In this document: piece by piece, positions 934 through 11,947 of the stretch
Position numbering within the stretch: position 1 is the stretch's first letter
How the letters are laid out: the number at the start of each line of letters is the position of its first letter
Source: a virus
Lineage: Duplodnaviria; Heunggongvirae; Uroviricota; Caudoviricetes
IMG/VR virus record: IMGVR_UViG_2896601577_000004
Strand: one strand, 5' to 3'
DNA length: 11,947 nucleotides
Notes under the pieces: model-generated
Databases searched by the model: none
The model's input: only the letters and a program-made list of their open reading frames with translations
What the model was told of the DNA's origin: nothing
Position numbers and translations under genes: made by a program

Positions 934-3526
<2,593 letters not shown>

Positions 3527-3598
3527 TGGAGCACCTGTGTTGTTCTGAGGTGAGCATATCACCTCTGTTCAGGTGGCCAAATTCAGTGTGCCACTTCA

Positions 3599-3659
<61 letters not shown>

Positions 3660-3662
3660 ATA

Positions 3663-3738
<76 letters not shown>

Positions 3739-3740
3739 GC

Positions 3741-3817
3741 TGGCCCACCACCGAGGACTCGAACCTCGCACCGTCAACTTAGAAGGTTGATGCTCTATCC
3801 GGATGAGCTAGTGGTGG
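3741..3817 (-). tRNA. tRNA-Arg (anticodon UCU, reads AGA), 77 nt, CCA encoded; unusual C1:G72 acceptor pair
   Basis: Minus-strand CCACCACTAGCTCATCCGGATAGAGCATCAACCTTCTAAGTTGACGGTGCGAGGTTCGAGTCCTCGGTGGTGGGCCA folds into a full cloverleaf (D stem GCTC/GAGC, anticodon stem TCAAC/GTTGA, T stem CGAGG/CCTCG). Confidence 0.7.
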
Positions 3818-3818
3818 T

Positions 3819-3895
3819 TGGTGGCCCTTGCTGGACTTGAACCAGCGACCTGGCGATTATGAGTCGCTCGCTCTGACCAACTGAGCTAAAGGGCC
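3819..3895 (-). tRNA. tRNA with CAU anticodon, most similar to tRNA-Ile2 (lysidine type, reads AUA) but tRNA-Met cannot be excluded; 77 nt, CCA encoded
   Basis: Minus-strand GGCCCTTTAGCTCAGTTGGTCAGAGCGAGCGACTCATAATCGCCAGGTCGCTGGTTCAAGTCCAGCAAGGGCCACCA resembles recalled E. coli ileX; one A-C mismatch at the top of the anticodon stem. Confidence 0.65.
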
Positions 3896-4084: not shown

Positions 4085-4507
4085 TCAAAAAGCAATAACT
4101 TTTTTCTCTATACCAAAAGCCATAACCATTGGTTTGTACAAAATAAATTCTGCCACCTTTAGCCAATGCTCAATGCGTCTTTCACAGGTTCTTAAACTCC
4201 ATTTCGGGTGTGCATCATTCAGCAGTTCAGCCATTTTGCGTTTGGTCATCCCCCGCCCCTCATACCGTTGCCGAAGGACGCTAATCAATCCTGGATGCTC
4301 TGCCAGCACCTCACTTATGACCCGATCAATACATAACGCCTCTGCATCAGTACAATGCGCCAGCCAGCTCTTTTGCTTACCGTTAATCATATCCCGCAAA
4401 AAAGCCTCAAGTTCAGACTTGTTCAGACCTGCTTTTTTCATCCTCCGGAGCGCCTCGTTAATTGCCGTTTTTGTCAGCTTTTTAGAGGCCAACAACTGGT
4501 TGAACAT
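4085..4507 (-). CDS. Putative phage late-gene antiterminator Q-like protein (about 140 aa from the ATG at 4507); the longer 193-aa frame back to 4666 starts with TTG inside the IS600 inverted repeat and is probably artefactual
   Basis: Position is Q-like: downstream of nin-region genes and immediately upstream of a terminator plus tRNA array. Loose similarity to recalled 933W/DLP12-type Q (QuuD) around ...HCTDAEALCIDRV...GMT...; no search run. Confidence 0.4.
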   Translation of the reverse strand: MFNQLLASKKLTKTAINEALRRMKKAGLNKSELEAFLRDMINGKQKSWLAHCTDAEALCIDRVISEVLAEHPGLISVLRQRYEGRGMTKRKMAELLNDAHPKWSLRTCERRIEHWLKVAEFILYKPMVMAFGIEKKVIAF

Positions 4508-4638
4508 ATTCCCCGTCTTACCGCCGCCAATATACGACCAGCGCCCCACATGCGCAGTTTTCCCTGAATCCAGACACTTTCCAGCGTGGTGAGACGAAGG
4601 TGTTCCCCGCTTTTGCCTGTATTTGTTGGGTAAATCAT
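4474..4638 (-). CDS. Small hypothetical ORF (54 aa, MIYPTNTGKSGEHLRL...) translationally coupled to the ybcO-like gene in the pre-IS600 sequence
   Basis: Its ATG overlaps the reconstructed ybcO-like stop (TTATGA) and is preceded by AAGGAAGG once IS600 is removed in silico; no recognisable family, W-rich composition. Confidence 0.25.
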   Translation of the reverse strand: MIYPTNTGKSGEHLRLTTLESVWIQGKLRMWGAGRILAAVRRGICSTSCWPLKS

Positions 4639-4693
4639 AAATAACCTTCCTGAGGTGTACTGGCAATAGCGGACACTACCATTTGTTCTTTTT

Positions 4694-5512
4694 TTAAGCA
4701 GCCATCTGATGATATTTTTCCCTGAAGGCTGCCGGGGAGATATTCCCCAGACGAGAGTGACGACGCTGACGATTGTAGAAAATCTCAATGTATTCCCGTA
4801 TTACTGAGATGGCTTCATCCCGGTTATTAAAACGATAGTGGCTCAGGCTCTCATTTTTCAGCGTTCCCCAGAAGCTTTCCATCGGAGCGTTGTCGTAACA
4901 CTGACCTTTACGCGACATTGATGTTTTCAGACCAGACTGCTCCTGTATGACCCGGTAATCGTATGCGCAGTACTGTGAACCTCGATCAGAGTGGTGGATT
5001 AGCCCGGCAGGTGGGCGCTGGCTCCTGAGCGCCATAAACAGGGCTTTACCTGTCAGCTCTTTTGTCATGCGCTCTCCCATGGCGTAGCCGACAATTTCGC
5101 ACGTATAAACATCTTTGATGCCAGCGAGGTACAACCATCCCTCCTGTGTGGCAACATACGTCAGGTCCGCCACCCAGACCTGATTTGGTGCTGTAGGAGC
5201 GAACGTCTGGTTCAGCAGATTTGGCGCAACTGGCAGATTGTGGTTCGGGTTCGTAGTCGCTCTGAACTTGCGTTTCTGCTTACAGCGTAGCCTTAGCTCC
5301 TTACGAAGACGTGCCAGTCGGTCACGACCAACGATGATGCCATTCTCTGCCAGCTCCGTCTGGAGCCGCCGGGTTCCATATGTTTCGCGAGTGCGGATAT
5401 GTGCCACCTTAATCTCCAGTTTTAGCCGCTCATCACTTTGTTTTCTGTCTGAGGGTTCATGCTGTACCCAGTTGTAATAACCGCTCCTGGATACACCAAA
5501 TACCTGACACAT
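4694..5512 (-). CDS. IS600 transposase OrfB (DDE domain)
   Basis: 272-aa ORF of IS3-family OrfB type, recalled as IS600 OrfB. Confidence 0.9.
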   Translation of the reverse strand: MCQVFGVSRSGYYNWVQHEPSDRKQSDERLKLEIKVAHIRTRETYGTRRLQTELAENGIIVGRDRLARLRKELRLRCKQKRKFRATTNPNHNLPVAPNLLNQTFAPTAPNQVWVADLTYVATQEGWLYLAGIKDVYTCEIVGYAMGERMTKELTGKALFMALRSQRPPAGLIHHSDRGSQYCAYDYRVIQEQSGLKTSMSRKGQCYDNAPMESFWGTLKNESLSHYRFNNRDEAISVIREYIEIFYNRQRRHSRLGNISPAAFREKYHQMAA

Positions 5513-5547
5513 CGCTTCAATGGGAAATTGTTGTCGCCATTGTTCGA

Positions 5548-5850
5548 TTAACGCGTATTTTTCAGCGACTCCTGTGCAAAATACGCTGTTGCTTTTTTTA
5601 ATATATCTCGCTCAAGGCGAGCTTCATTTAACGCCTTACGCAGTTGCAGAATTTCAGATTCCAGTTCAGCCACCGTGCGGGAACCAGGAGTACCGAGCCC
5701 TTTTCTGGCGGCGGTAACCCATTGTCCTAAAGTGCCTTCAGGAAGGGATAATCGGGAAGCGCCTTCACTGATCGAAAGTTGATTTTCAAGAACCGTTCTG
5801 ACAGCTTCGGCTTTGAACTCTTTAGAGTAACGTTGGTTTTTTCTGCTCAT
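5548..5850 (-). CDS. IS600 OrfA (helix-turn-helix regulatory protein, 100 aa)
   Basis: MSRKNQRYSKEFKAEAVRTVLENQLSISEGASRL... recalled as IS600 OrfA; an A-rich slippery run lies at its 3' end. Confidence 0.9.
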   Translation of the reverse strand: MSRKNQRYSKEFKAEAVRTVLENQLSISEGASRLSLPEGTLGQWVTAARKGLGTPGSRTVAELESEILQLRKALNEARLERDILKKATAYFAQESLKNTR

Positions 5851-5914
5851 TATTAGCTCCTTCTGATGCCATTCTATTTCAGGAAGGAGTGTCCGTTAAA
5901 CTCAGGCTACCTAA

Positions 5915-6109
5915 TCCTTTCTCCAGATTTCTTGCGTGCGAAAAACACCTTCTGCATGCATCAGGCGTAATTCTTCTTTGGTGTAATCGCTTGTTTTTAC
6001 CCGCCAGTCGGTAATGCGCCAGCACAGACGTTTCCGGATCGTGATTGCAGTAGCCAGGAATTCTGACGGTGCACATCTGCCCCCGCGCCGCTTTACGTAA
6101 ATCCACCAT
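5915..6109 (-). pseudogene. ybcO-like (DUF1364) lambdoid nin-region gene, degraded: N-terminal 37 aa in one frame, C-terminus in another frame (internal deletion of the Cys/His-rich centre), and IS600 inserted 9 nt before its stop; the last codons and TGA stop lie at 4635..4650 beyond IS600
   Basis: N-terminus MVDLRKAARGQMCTVRIPGYCNHDPETSVLAHYRLAG matches recalled E. coli YbcO (MADLRKAARGRECQVRIPGVCSHNPETSVLAHIRLTG...). The frame-2 C-terminus ...EGVFRTQEIWRKEGYL (spliced across IS600) matches the recalled YbcO C-terminus ...EGMARTQVIWLKEGVIKA. Confidence 0.55.
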
Positions 6110-6759
6110 TACGCAAACTCCAGTAGCTGCGCGGCCACATTTTCGACTTGTTCCGGAGAGGAAAATTTACGGAACAGGATCCAGTTCAACAGTACATTCA
6201 GCACAGATTTATAAACCTGCTGAAACTCGGTTTCGTCCATATTCGCAAACGAGATGGATTTCGCCCTGCGCCCACGGCTACCGTCCGGATAAATATGCTC
6301 GGTGTAAAATCCGGCCTGAATGGTTACCCACTCGCGGAAAGCCTCAAACGACTTTAGCAATGCTGTATCTCGGGTTCTGCGTGTCGCAACTGTATTCAGA
6401 TATTGCTCTGCGGCTTCGCTCAGAGCTGGCGTATGTTCCCGGCCTACTGATTCGCACAGGTACTCAACGAAGCCTGATACCAGTTCTCGTTCGCGAGGCG
6501 TAATCGCCCCACCGATCGGAGTCCAGTAATCGAATCCCAGTTGCAGGAGTTTGAAAAAACGCTTGTGGAATGCGTAGTTACGCACACGCTTAAAGTCTGC
6601 GTGTATCCACTCACCTGTTTTGATTTGATGCAGAAAATCGCAACTCTCCGGCGTCGCCGGGAGAAGTAATCCGGAAGAGGTTTGTTTGATCAGTTGTATA
6701 TGGCCATCGGCTTTCTCCGGTGGCACGGTGTTACACAGCAGGAGTTCAATCCTGCTCAA
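6109..6759 (-). CDS. Conserved lambdoid-prophage nin-region protein of unknown function (possibly DUF1367 family), 216 aa
   Basis: Long ORF whose stop overlaps the ybcO-like start (TAATG) and whose start overlaps the upstream 95-aa ORF by 14 nt; family assignment is from memory only. Confidence 0.6.
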   Translation of the reverse strand: MSRIELLLCNTVPPEKADGHIQLIKQTSSGLLLPATPESCDFLHQIKTGEWIHADFKRVRNYAFHKRFFKLLQLGFDYWTPIGGAITPRERELVSGFVEYLCESVGREHTPALSEAAEQYLNTVATRRTRDTALLKSFEAFREWVTIQAGFYTEHIYPDGSRGRRAKSISFANMDETEFQQVYKSVLNVLLNWILFRKFSSPEQVENVAAQLLEFA

Positions 6760-7033
6760 GATTGTAGATGAGTTTATTCTTCAGCAAAAGCAGAAAACCA
6801 GCCTTAAAACCAATCTCTTTCAAAACCCGTAATGATGTGACAAATTCGTCCTCACGCAAAATAAAACCGTCCGTCAGAAGTCCATTACAAAAATAAAATA
6901 ACACAGCACCGCTCTTCCTTTGTTGAGATTGCAAACATCTAATGCGGCAATGGCTGACAATCGCTCCATTCTCAACGCGCACAGCATAGAGGCCATTTTC
7001 ACTAAAAATTTCACGCAATTCTTCGATTTTCAT
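6746..7033 (-). CDS. Hypothetical small prophage protein (95 aa), first gene of a coupled operon
   Basis: ATG at 7033 preceded by GGAAGGA at suitable spacing; 14-nt overlap with the next gene; a sigma70-like promoter lies just upstream. Confidence 0.5.
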   Translation of the reverse strand: MKIEELREIFSENGLYAVRVENGAIVSHCRIRCLQSQQRKSGAVLFYFCNGLLTDGFILREDEFVTSLRVLKEIGFKAGFLLLLKNKLIYNLEQD

Positions 7034-7161: not shown

Positions 7162-7205
7162 CAAAAAACCCGCCGAAACTCTGAGAGATCACAGCGATGG
7201 GCGGG
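7162..7205 (-). terminator. Candidate 3' terminator of the hok transcript
   Basis: Minus strand CCCGCCC-(25-nt loop)-GGCGGG followed by TTTTTT; a second perfect 9-bp hairpin (GGGCGGGGA/TCCCCGCCC, 7236..7265) lies just after the hok stop without a U-tract. Confidence 0.4.
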
Positions 7206-7282
7206 TTAAGTGCGGGTGCGTTGAGGATGCCTGACACATCAGAGGTGGGCGGGGATGGGATCAGCTCCCCGCCCGGTCACTC

Positions 7283-7438
7283 TTACTTCCTGGATTCGTA
7301 GTCTACGAAGACAGCGACCTCCGTCTGGCCGGTTCGGATTCGTACCTCACAGAGGTCTTTCCTCGTTACCAGTGCCGTCACTATGACGGTTAAACAGATG
7401 ACGATCAGGGCGATTAACATCGCCTTTTGCTGCTTCAT
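7283..7438 (-). CDS. hok: Hok-family type I toxin (51 aa small membrane peptide, HokD/RelF-like)
   Basis: MKQQKAMLIALIVICLTVIVTALVTRKDLCEVRIRTGQTEVAVF... is near-identical to recalled HokD over the first ~44 residues, with the typical single transmembrane helix. Confidence 0.8.
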   Translation of the reverse strand: MKQQKAMLIALIVICLTVIVTALVTRKDLCEVRIRTGQTEVAVFVDYESRK

Positions 7439-7495
7439 AGCCTGCTTCTCCTTGCCTTTCGGCATGTAAGAGGCTAACCTACATGTGCAAAGCAT
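7283..7495 (-). CDS. mok: Mok (modulator of killing) reading frame, same frame and stop as hok with a 19-codon N-terminal extension
   Basis: ATG at 7495 opens a 70-aa frame co-terminal with hok, the arrangement known for mokC/hokC-type loci. Confidence 0.55.
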   Translation of the reverse strand: MLCTCRLASYMPKGKEKQAMKQQKAMLIALIVICLTVIVTALVTRKDLCEVRIRTGQTEVAVFVDYESRK

Positions 7496-7665
7496 GAAAT
7501 TGGCCTCAGATTAATGTTAAGCGTCTTGCCGGACGCGTAATGTTAACTGGGGCTTTTCTCTATCTGCCTTTTAGTGTTCATGCCTGAAGCAGATAGCCTC
7601 AAGCACCCGCAGTCATTCTACTTACCTCGCCAATATGAAATCAATCAGAAAGGTGCCCCATAAAA

Positions 7666-8352
7666 TCACTCCTTCTCTTCTTTACCGTAGTGGAGTTGAC
7701 CAATTTTGATAAGAGGGCGTCCCTGAGATTTGCGGTGTAGATTGGTATCGCGCAGAGAATACACACAGCCACAATATTCCTGCTGATAGAATTTTTCGCG
7801 CTTGCTGATTTCAATCATACGGGACGAGCCTCCCTGCTTGCGCCAGTTATAATCCCAGTACACCATGCCCGGATAATGCGCGACGGCTCGCCGCCCACAG
7901 TCGTTAACCTGCTGCATATTTTTCCAGCGTGAAATGCCCAGTGAACTGCTGATCACACTGAAACCATTTTCAGCGGCGTACAGCGCTGTCCGCTCAAAAC
8001 GCATGTCAAAACACATGGTGCAACGGATCCCTCGTTCGGGCTCCCATTCCATTCCTTTGGCTCGTTCAAACCAGTTGTCTGTGTCGTAATCAGCATCAAT
8101 AAACGGCACGCCGTGTTGTTCAGCAAAGCGAATATTCTCATCCTTACGAATTAAATACTCTTTCTGAGGATGAATGTTCGGGTTGTAGAAAAAGATGGTG
8201 TAGTCGATTCCCGAGGCCTGAAGCGCCTCCATCACCTCACCGGAACATGGAGCACAGCAAGAGTGCAGTAGTAGTTTGTTTGCCCCGTTTGGGAGCTCCA
8301 ATTTGGGCCGTTTGAAATCAGCAACTGTCATAAATATGTTTATTGGGGTCAT
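7666..8352 (-). CDS. queH: QueH-like epoxyqueuosine reductase (DUF208 family), prophage-borne
   Basis: 228-aa ORF with the recalled DUF208 cysteine motifs: HSCCAPCS near the N-terminus, CTMCFDMRF in the middle, YCGCVYS near the C-terminus. Confidence 0.75.
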
Positions 8353-8499
8353 AAAAATATCAAAGAGTGTAGCATTAGAACGGGGCTATCGGAAACAGAT
8401 GTGTGACTGCTCCCCGCCCTTTCGGGCTGAAGTGGCACACTGAATTTGGCCACCTGAACAGAGGTGATATGCTCACCTCAGAACAACACAGGTGCTCCA

Positions 8500-9397
<898 letters not shown>

Positions 9398-9439: not shown

Positions 9440-10330
9440 TCAGGCTGCCAGATCATCGTTTCCGATGGAAGCATAATAAGCTTTTTCTGCTTCTGCCGGA
9501 GGAGTATGGCCCAGCCTTTCCAGCAATCGTCGATTATTATACCAGTCCACCCACGTGAGTGTGGCCAGTTCCACTTCTGCACGGTTTTTCCAGCTCTTAC
9601 GGTGTATTACCTCCGCTTTGTAAAGACCATTGATGCTCTCCGCCATCGCGTTGTCATACGAGTCGCCTGTACTTCCTGTTGATGCCAGTAATCCGGCTTC
9701 CTTAAGCCGCTGTGTGTAGGCCAGCGATACATACTGAGAACCTTTATCACTGTGATGGACTGTGCCGGACGGTCGACGGGCCCATAACGCCTGCTCCAGA
9801 GCATCCAGCACGAATGTCGTTTCCATGGACGATGAGACCCGCCACCCCACGATGTATCCGGCAAACACATCAATGATGAACGCCACATAGACGAAGCCCT
9901 GCCATGTGCTGACGTAAGTAAAATCAGCCACCCACAGCTGGTCAGGTCGTTCTGCCACGAACTGACGGTTTACGCGGTCGCCTGCGGCAACGGCTTTCCG
10001 GCTGATGGTCGTACGGACCTTTTTACCCCGGAGAACACCGGCAAGTCCCATAACCGCCATGAGACGTGCCACAGTGCATCTGGCCACTCTGATACCTTCC
10101 CGTAACAACTGACGCCAGACTTTACGCACACCGTATACCTGATGATTCCCATCGTATACGCGCAGTATCTCTTTCTTCAGCCAGTCATCGCGCTGCGCAC
10201 GGGCACTGCGTTTATCAGGATGATGTCGCTGTTGCTGACAGTGGTAATACGTTGACGGGGCAATATGCAGTTCACTGCATACCGGTCCGACCCCGTACAG
10301 CTTACGCAGCTTATCCAGCAGTGGCATCAC
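9440..10330 (-). CDS. IS629 transposase OrfB (DDE domain, 296 aa)
   Basis: IS3-family OrfB with a 4-nt overlap with OrfA; recalled as IS629 OrfB. Confidence 0.9.
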
Positions 10331-10653
10331 TTTTTCCAGAGGCGGTCGAACTCCGCCTTCGCAAAATAAGCGGAAGCCTGGCGAAGGATATCGTTACTGC
10401 GGCGCAGTTCACGATTTTCACGCTCCAGCTCTTTCAGACGCTGACGTTCAGCGGTGGTGAGCCCTCCATCACCGCCCCCGGTATCCCGCTCATGCTGGCG
10501 AACCCAGACACGCAGAGTCTCCGGCGTACAGCCAATCTTTGGAGCAATGGAACAAATTGTCGCCCATTGTGAGTCATATTCGCCCTGACTTTCCAGAACC
10601 ATACGGACTGCCCGTTGACGGACTTCGGGGGAAAAACGAGTATTTTTAGTCAT
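10327..10653 (-). CDS. IS629 OrfA (108 aa, helix-turn-helix)
   Basis: [50 protein letters not shown]... recalled as IS629 OrfA. Confidence 0.9.
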
Positions 10654-10707
10654 CCTGTTTACCTCTTTCTCAGGGAGTTTAGTCTCCAGGATTCCCGGGG
10701 CGGTTCA

Positions 10708-11102
10708 ATGGGAAATTGTTGTCGCCATTGTTCGATTAACGCGTATTTTTCAGCGACTCCTGTGCAAAATACGCTGTTGCTTTTTTTAATATATCTCGCT
10801 CAAGGCGAGCTTCATTTAACGCCTTACGCAGTTGCAGAATTTCAGATTCCAGTTCAGCCACCGTGCGGGAACCAGGAGTACCGAGCCCTTTTCTGGCGGC
10901 GGTAACCCATTGTCCTAAAGTGCCTTCAGGAAGGGATAATCGGGAAGCGCCTTCACTGATCGAAAGTTGATTTTCAAGAACCGTTCTGACAGCTTCGGCT
11001 TTGAACTCTTTAGAGTAACGTTGGTTTTTTCTGCTCATTATTAGCTCCTTCTGATGCCATTCTATTTCAGGAAGGAGTGTCCGTTAAACTCAGGCTACCT
11101 CA
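10708..11102 (-). mobile_element. IS600, second copy, truncated: only the left ~395 bp (orfA end) remain, abutting IS629
   Basis: Sequence identical to 5518..5912 of copy 1; terminus ...CTCAGGCTACCTCA at 11102; the IS629/IS600 junction falls within the 4-bp microhomology TTCA (10704..10707). Confidence 0.9.
10736..11038 (-). CDS. IS600 OrfA (copy 2)
   Basis: Identical protein to copy 1 OrfA. Confidence 0.9.
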   Translation of the reverse strand: MSRKNQRYSKEFKAEAVRTVLENQLSISEGASRLSLPEGTLGQWVTAARKGLGTPGSRTVAELESEILQLRKALNEARLERDILKKATAYFAQESLKNTR

Positions 11103-11947
11103 ATCTTAAACTACCGGAATGAACTGCTGCATGGAGAAACGCTTTACCTAGATAATCCAAGATCCAACAAAAAAGGAAGAATCGTGCGCACAGTTGATAA
11201 CTATATCGCCCTGCTCTGTTCGTTGTTACGTTTTGCGTATCAGTCGGGATTTATATCAACCAAACCATTTGAAGGAGTAAAAAAATTACAGCGAAACAGA
11301 ATAAAACCTGACCCGTTATCTAAAACAGAATTCAATGCATTAATGGAAAGTGAAAAAGGACAGAGCCAAAACTTGTGGAAATTTGCCGTTTACTCCGGGC
11401 TTCGTCACGGGGAACTGGCAGCTCTGGCGTGGGAGGATGTGGATTTCGAGAAGGGAATTGTGAATGTCAGAAGAAACCTGACGATACTTGATATGTTCGG
11501 TCCCCAAAAACAAATGCCGGGATCCGGACGGTAACATTACTGCAGCCGGCTCTTGAAGCACTGAAGGAGCAATACAAACTGACCGGGCATCATCGCAAAA
11601 GCGAAATCACTTTTTATCATCGGGAGTACGGCAGAACTGAAAAGCAAAAACTGCATTTTGTTTTCATGCCCAGGGTGTGTAACGAAAAACAGAAACCTTA
11701 TTACTCGGTAAGCAGTTTGGGTGCAAGATGGAATGCAGCAGTAAAACGTGCTGGTATTCGCCGCCGTAATCCGTACCATACGCGACATACTTTTGCCTGC
11801 TGGCTGTTGACGGCAGGAGCGAACCCGGCATTTATAGCCAGCCAGATGGGGCATGAAACTGCGCAAATGGTGTATGAAATTTACGGTATGTGGATTGATG
11901 ACATGAACGACGAACAGATAGCCATGTTGAATGCGCGGTTATCGTAG
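11103..11947 (+). pseudogene. Phage-type tyrosine integrase/recombinase, 5'-truncated by IS600 and frameshifted near 11506..11512; the C-terminal catalytic domain is intact in the second frame and ends at the TAG at 11945..11947
   Basis: Frame A is open from the IS600 junction to 11534 (...NLTILDMFGP QKQMPGSGR stop). Frame C from about 11507 encodes ...PKTNAGIRTVTLLQPALEAL...HTRHTFACWLLTAGANPAFIASQMGHETAQMVYEIYG..., a typical integrase C-terminal region with the conserved R/H and Y residues; the switch falls in a CCCC-AAAAA run. Confidence 0.8.

Follow-up and report, generated by a model that had tools for sequence, protein, structure and literature searches.

The stretch of DNA analysed here (the window; 11,947 nucleotides of the IMG/VR virus record IMGVR_UViG_2896601577_000004) holds a decayed lambdoid prophage with a gene for QueH; a hok/sok module lies 58 bp away from this gene, and an array of phage tRNA genes ~3.8 kb away (Table 1). 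The order on the minus strand is queH, hok/sok, a 95-aa ORF, DUF1367, the remnant of a DUF1364/YbcO gene, a Q-like gene of the DUF1133 family, and the tRNAs. Both the hok neighbour and the nearby tRNA array had been read from the sequence in a preliminary description, and both are borne out by the profile and tRNA searches of Table 1. The DUF1367 gene order is the same in the prophages of E. coli FDAARGOS_944 and E. coli 042. The 95-aa ORF (6746-7033, minus strand, between hok and DUF1367) has a GC content of 39.6% and no Pfam or NCBIfam match; it is kept in the FDAARGOS_944 prophage, where it is annotated as hypothetical, and in 18 of 80 IMG/VR loci.

Table 1. Features of the prophage remnant in the window, with the evidence for each.
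Feature	Coordinates	Strand	Evidence
queH CDS	7666..8331	-	221 aa from the probable start, ATG 8331; PF02677, PDB match, AF2/Foldseek
Conserved upstream region, candidate proximal promoter	8332..8402	-	Kept with queH in three prophage backgrounds
hok/mok toxin ORF	7283..7495	-	Pfam HOK_GEF E=9.8e-23; NCBIfam Hok
sok antisense RNA region	7433..7608	-	Rfam RF01794, 116 bits
DUF1367 phage gene (nin-region equivalent)	6109..6759	-	Pfam PF07105 E=7.6e-94
DUF1364/YbcO gene remnant	5879..6109	-	Pfam YbcO residues 3-39 only; blast breakpoints
IS600 within the DUF1364/YbcO gene	4651..5912	-	99.8% identity to IS600-family annotations; transposase domains
DUF1133 Q-like antiterminator gene	4085..4666	-	Pfam PF06576 E=2.8e-87; weak Phage_antitermQ match
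tRNA array: Met/Ile(CAU), Arg(UCU), Thr(UGU), 3'-truncated Gly(UCC)	3598..3895	-	ARAGORN; Rfam partial tRNA 3596..3650
IS911 copy 1	2349..3598	-	Opposite orientation to copy 2; left end adjoins the cut tRNA-Gly gene
IS911 copy 2	8428..9397	+	orfA/orfB ORFs; matches annotated IS911-family transposase
Phage integrase fragments, frameshift-split, left edge of the prophage remnant	11184..11947	+	Pfam Phage_integrase on both

Insertion elements have destroyed much of the prophage. Between the integrase fragments and queH, phage DNA is replaced by the truncated IS911 copy 2, a 1310-bp IS3-family element and a partial IS600, and the replication, immunity and recombination genes are missing; the lysis and structural genes have all been cut off by IS911. 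The integrase region itself matches that of the sequenced phage HannyBb weakly. Relative to the FDAARGOS_944 prophage, the DUF1364/YbcO gene is broken by an IS600 and an 83-bp deletion that together leave 37 YbcO residues.

Several details of these rearrangements can be read from the junctions. The two IS911 copies are inverted with their left ends inward and bracket the surviving phage segment, 3599..8427; copy 1 cuts the tRNA-Gly(UCC) gene, and copy 2 replaces everything upstream of queH, an arrangement also seen in the IMG/VR contigs L012, L014 and L021. Copy 2 is in turn truncated at 9397 by the 1310-bp IS3-family element, with an ALIL frameshift pseudoknot at 10256-10372 (Rfam, 120 bits), and the partial IS600 copy lies at about 10704-11102, between that element and the integrase fragments. 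The 83-bp deletion just beyond the complete IS600 (region 4651-6010) is flanked by an 11-bp repeat. At the other end of the window, a glycosyl hydrolase family 1 gene that has lost its N-terminal part and probably encoded a 6-phospho-beta-glucosidase (934-2319, minus strand) lies between an IS3-family transposase (1-906) and IS911 copy 1, and marks a prophage/chromosome rearrangement junction.

Amid this decay the queH reading frame is whole. The minus-strand ORF at 7666..8352 encodes 228 aa in as many codons, and its protein matches the Pfam QueH profile PF02677 over positions 1-174 of 175, scoring 220.6 bits (E=1.9e-65) where the gathering cutoff is 23.5 bits. T. maritima QueH (7lc5) is matched at E=5e-22 by the single sequence and at about 2e-49 by a profile of 48 homologues. 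All three cysteine motifs named in the preliminary description, CCAPC, CxxC and CGC, are present as C32-C33-A-P-C36, C111-x-x-C114 and C194-G-C196 (seven Cys), and they survive careful alignment. A first alignment set the ORF protein against representatives of 50%-identity clusters, drawn from 1.84 billion searched proteins; a second, of 48 sequences, reached down to 35% identity and has 15 invariant columns (C32, C33, C36, N59, R69, E106, R110, C111, C114, R118, K144, Q191, C194, G195 and C196), and the ORF protein keeps all 15 of these residues.

The predicted structure agrees with this assignment. A single-sequence AlphaFold run reached a pLDDT of only 37.7, and the alignment-based model (AF2; pLDDT 94.4) was used instead. 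The five best PDB matches of that model in Foldseek are all T. maritima QueH (target-normalised TM 0.91-0.92, rmsd 1.3-2.0 Å), with a fit to 7lc5 of TM 0.92 and rmsd 1.3 Å over 179 columns; the next matches, TtuA and GMP synthase, fall orders of magnitude behind. No NCBIfam model matches the ORF protein at E<=0.01. The identical protein is nonetheless called QueH in RefSeq, so that name must come from another rule, and the missing match leaves the Pfam and structural evidence unweakened. By sequence, profile, conserved residues and predicted fold, the ORF is confirmed as an intact, full-length, canonical QueH/DUF208 homologue; the profile search and structure prediction that had been proposed as checks on the QueH call have both upheld it.

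The crystallised T. maritima enzyme (7LC5, 7LC7, 9DEU) shares this fold at only 30% identity and lacks about 20 residues that the window protein has at either end. T. maritima C9, C10, C87, C90, C169 and C171 align with C32, C33, C111, C114, C194 and C196 of the window protein, while Asp13 takes the place of Cys36. CCAPC is the family consensus, with Cys at the Cys36 position in 53 of 55 sequences, and in the aligned family the prophage QueH is the typical form at this position and the crystallised enzyme the exception. As the solved enzyme has Asp there, metal-site detail for the window protein is extrapolated from family conservation and not from the crystal structure; the roles of individual ligands are taken from alignment and from the titles of PDB entries (C9S and D13N mutants).

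Much closer relatives are the chromosomal QueH proteins of other Enterobacterales. Those of Erwinia, Providencia, Proteus, Photorhabdus, Serratia, Pantoea and Rahnella are 78-86% identical to the prophage protein at the amino acid level (80-86% for Erwinia, Providencia and Photorhabdus), and they share its length, its N-terminal start, its C-terminal tail (HRKxQGRxxIKxGxxYYG) and all catalytic-site residues. The difference lies in the setting: chromosomal queH sits among ordinary genes, adjoining tmcA and purC in Providencia and among non-phage genes in Photorhabdus and Erwinia amylovora, whereas the window queH is prophage cargo, in E. coli hosts that already have QueG. Family membership, conserved residues, predicted fold and the high identity to housekeeping QueH together argue that the protein would perform the canonical reduction of epoxyqueuosine (oQ) to queuosine (Q) at tRNA position 34.

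The chromosomal homologues also bear on where the gene begins. The ORF of the preliminary description, 7666-8352, does exist on the minus strand, and opens at an in-frame ATG at 8352; comparisons with its homologues, however, point to the ATG at 8331 as the probable true start, which would make a protein of 221 aa. The downstream codon is favoured because PGAP/RefSeq uses the equivalent codon, because chromosomal homologues begin there, and because three of the eight amino acid differences from the phage HannyBb protein fall within codons 1-7 of the longer ORF. At 48%, the GC content of queH is unremarkable.

Upstream of the gene, homology ends at 8402 in comparison with E. coli 042 and HannyBb and at 8427 in comparison with FDAARGOS_944, and most of the 80 IMG/VR loci likewise lose homology at 8402. 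The common endpoint across backgrounds implies that the unit travelling with queH includes only ~50 bp of upstream sequence, and in the window this conserved block is wholly retained. Within it, an invariant TGcTACACT at 8374..8366 resembles, when read by eye, an extended -10 element, and we infer from this conservation that 8332..8402 may hold a proximal queH promoter. A hairpin precedes the conserved block in both other backgrounds. Consensus scans of the window sequence and of the intact prophage called neither a sigma-70 promoter nor a terminator for queH.

IS911 copy 2 begins at 8428, 75 nt before the ATG at 8352, exactly the distance given in the preliminary description; the distance to the ATG at 8331 is 96 nt. 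The accompanying suggestion that the insertion may have displaced the queH promoter is weakened: the proximal conserved block is retained to 8402, while the phage early promoter region is gone. The early region upstream of queH has been removed whole, so any transcription of queH that depended on it has been lost. Nor does the arrangement fit the further idea that queH is transcribed from an outward promoter of the element. The left end of IS911 copy 2 faces queH, and orfA (ATG 8500) reads away from it, which makes such transcription unlikely on the layout of the elements; no outward promoter is known at the IS911 left end.

These losses raise the question of whether queH here is a silent passenger, an intact-looking leftover that would have gone untranscribed since the IS-mediated loss of the early promoter and upstream genes, and that would contribute nothing to the cell. 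The heavy degradation of the prophage speaks for this, with its early genes missing, its YbcO-like gene disrupted and its tRNA-Gly, lysis and structural genes cut off, as does the failure of consensus scans to call a promoter upstream of queH. Yet the ORF is undamaged, its product is identical to that of an intact prophage, with one synonymous change between the two genes, and the conserved upstream block with its extended -10-like motif remains in place. Moreover, the arrangement of IS911 and queH recurs in several independent assemblies (IMG/VR contigs L012, L014 and L021). The intact ORF could still be reconciled with silence if the decay were too recent to have damaged queH. On balance we regard a silent gene as unlikely. 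The IS911-queH junction is absent from complete E. coli genomes, and an exact search of species-representative genomes gave no match; with the junction shared by L012, L014 and L021 and the exact protein named from Shigella sonnei, the window probably comes from a Shigella-like strain.

The arrangement from which this remnant derives is seen intact in E. coli FDAARGOS_944, E. coli 042 and phage HannyBb, where queH lies between the replication genes (ydaV, DUF977) upstream and hokD downstream. The 042 copy belongs to a Rac-type prophage (kilR, sieB, ydaF, ydaT/ydaU/ydaV ... trkG), in which the block between ydaV/DUF977 and trkG comprises queH, hokD, DUF1367, DUF1364, DUF1133, tRNAs, holin and lysozyme. 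The cryptic prophage Rac of E. coli K-12 is of the same type as the window and 042 prophages, but there the rzpR pseudogene and trkG come immediately after ydaW, and the queH/hok/Q-like/tRNA/holin/lysozyme block is absent. The laboratory strain K-12 has thus lost a queH block that the fuller Rac of 042 carries.

Beyond these genomes, queH is found on 188 IMG/VR viral contigs, 80 of whose loci were examined: DUF977 lies upstream in 75 of the 80 and hok downstream in 65. A block of ~1.2 kb spanning queH to hok (~7201-8402 in the window) recurs in different prophage backgrounds, and the tRNA sets and Q/nin modules that accompany it differ, from which we conclude that the block is exchanged among lambdoid backgrounds as one mosaic unit. 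Flanked by conserved phage modules and present or absent among related phages, queH has the character of prophage cargo (a 'moron'). Other tRNA sets (CAU, Arg-UCG and Arg-UCU; or CAU, Lys-UUU, Thr and Gly) and another Q/nin module are seen in many queH-bearing prophages, among them the IMG/VR loci L038, L053 and L058. In L053, with its Met-Arg-Arg tRNA pattern, a toxin gene was sought right after the tRNAs; no complete ORF lies beyond 11974, and frame 1 of 11560-12684 holds none.

In FDAARGOS_944, 042 and HannyBb alike, queH lies directly after the replication genes and on their strand, an early-right operon position, and this raises the possibility that QueH serves the phage: expressed from that operon only after induction, it would tune the Q status of host tRNAs for phage translation during lytic growth. 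The presence of queH in a sequenced phage genome is in keeping with such a role, and so is the lack of a strong predicted promoter or terminator of its own. Against it, differences in decoding between oQ and Q are undocumented in the literature examined, and turnover of the host tRNA pool within a single lytic cycle seems a weak lever. The hairpin and conserved block that precede queH in different backgrounds fit a self-contained module instead, and queH stays intact in non-inducible remnants such as the window. We consider a function confined to lytic growth quite unlikely.

The tRNA genes of these prophages help to define the substrate. In the preliminary description, the lack of a GUN anticodon among four adjacent phage tRNAs had been taken to mean that the enzyme acts on host tRNAs or, conceivably, on a 7-deazaguanine modification of nucleic acid. 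None of the window tRNAs is indeed of the GUN type, although only three of the four (CAU, UCU and UGU) are intact, tRNA-Gly(UCC) being cut at 3598 by IS911 copy 1; the array is intact in the FDAARGOS_944 prophage. The argument for host tRNAs gains from a wider comparison, as no GUN anticodon was found beside queH in 57 related loci, whose phage tRNAs are confined to the anticodons CAU, UCU, UCG, UGU, UCC and UUU. The neighbouring phage tRNAs therefore cannot be the substrate of QueH. One exceptional locus, L064, has Glu(UUC), Ala(UGC) and Ile(GAU) tRNAs, none of them GUN; this set is apparently not a phage array, and our guess is that it belongs to a host rRNA operon.

The second idea, that QueH acts on 7-deazaguanines in phage or host DNA and not on tRNA, has a precedent in phages that place such bases in their DNA by means of Q-pathway genes (PMC6884629). 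Dpd-like phage clusters such as that of phage 9g resemble the queH prophages in carrying genes related to the Q pathway. They combine early pathway steps (FolE, QueD, QueE and QueC) with the DNA transglycosylase DpdA and modify DNA, whereas the queH prophages carry only the last, tRNA-specific step. No dpdA/TGT-like, folE, queD, queE or queC gene is annotated within ~9 kb on either side of queH in FDAARGOS_944, 042 or HannyBb, the intact versions of the arrangement. Hutinet et al. group QueH with the proteins specific to tRNA-Q synthesis (PMC6884629), and the 80-86% identity to housekeeping chromosomal QueH likewise speaks against a change of substrate. Action on DNA is thus highly improbable.

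Prophage carriage of queH had also been called notable, and it is less so than it seemed. At least 1000 public contigs encode exactly this 221-aa protein, already under the name QueH (Shigella sonnei; 'MULTISPECIES Enterobacteriaceae'), and prophages of E. coli and Shigella commonly carry the gene. Among 5426 complete E. coli genomes, 995 carry queH at 90-99.9% nucleotide identity, almost always as a single chromosomal copy, annotated 'epoxyqueuosine reductase QueH'. The QueH call is therefore real without being new: this is a common gene, already known from database annotation. All 5426 genomes have queG, including the 995 with queH, so in complete E. coli genomes QueH is always a second enzyme. 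At the level of its alleles, prophage queH is under purifying selection, with dN/dS of 0.04-0.08 and differences that are mostly synonymous.

Outside Escherichia and Shigella, the closest relatives come from Enterobacter, Kluyvera and Scandinavium (86-92%). We note one peculiar locus in Enterobacter hormaechei (CP170191.1; 5181-6690 of locus L091), where a 92%-identical queH comes right after a phage-integrase fragment, among chromosomal genes (a GntR regulator, an FAD oxidoreductase, LysR, and acetolactate decarboxylase/synthase); it looks like the remnant of a small mobile element, unlike the lambdoid context. We set aside QueH matches in 'phage' records of Staphylococcus, Listeria and Acinetobacter (282-378 kb, or tiny fragments), which look like bacterial DNA or doubtful assemblies. 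Two of the records, named 'Acinetobacter phage MD-2021a' (328-379 kb, with a 78%-identical QueH), are doubtful as phage genomes.

The enzyme that accompanies QueH in these E. coli hosts is QueG (yjeS/b4166), which catalyses the same reaction, oQ34 to Q34 in tRNA (EC 1.17.99.6; PMC5372724). The two families are non-orthologous: QueG requires cobalamin, and QueH is its alternative that works independently of cobamides (PMC5372724, PMC6461909). Reduction of oQ in E. coli is cobamide-dependent, according to Frey et al. 1988 as cited in PMC5372724. As the host reaction needs a cobamide and QueH does not, completion of Q without B12 would be the most economical benefit for a host to draw from the prophage. 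Where B12 is available QueH is redundant, every E. coli genome examined having QueG.

Our preferred reading, to which we give a probability of roughly 0.78, is accordingly of an intact, canonical QueH carried as lambdoid prophage cargo, which would complete Q34 on host tRNAs independently of B12. The gene was probably captured from a chromosomal queH of Enterobacterales; it sits in the nin-like part of a lambdoid prophage of the Rac type, with the replication genes on one side and the hok, Q-antiterminator and tRNA modules on the other. Its product, a predicted cobalamin-independent iron-sulfur enzyme, would reduce oQ34 to Q34 on host tRNA-Asp, -Asn, -His and -Tyr, so that a host with the B12-needing QueG would gain a B12-independent way to finish queuosine modification.

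What is worth keeping is that lambdoid prophages of E. coli and Shigella carry the final tRNA-specific step of queuosine synthesis, and that they do so always in the company of the B12-dependent QueG. A 2019 virus survey reported no QueA, QueG or QueH in the viruses analysed (PMC6884629). A literature search found no paper that discusses prophage carriage of QueH. The carriage of such an enzyme beside QueG is a modest point, though apparently an undiscussed one.

Rac-type and other lambdoid prophages might, in a tentative extension that we hold with some doubt, be regarded as lysogenic-conversion elements for tRNA modification, with QueH letting about one-fifth of E. coli strains and many Shigella finish queuosine without B12; on that view QueH would be the first tRNA-specific enzyme of the queuosine pathway to be recognised on phages. 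This could matter for Shigella, in which Q modification (tgt/vacC) has been linked to virulence (Durand 1994, as cited in PMC10570037). If queG were inactivated in the source genome of the window, the prophage queH would be the only oQ reductase left. Should queH be expressed in lysogens, the prophage would remove a vitamin dependence from a translation-tuning pathway of its host, and this would explain the presence of an intact gene amid a prophage otherwise destroyed by insertion sequences.
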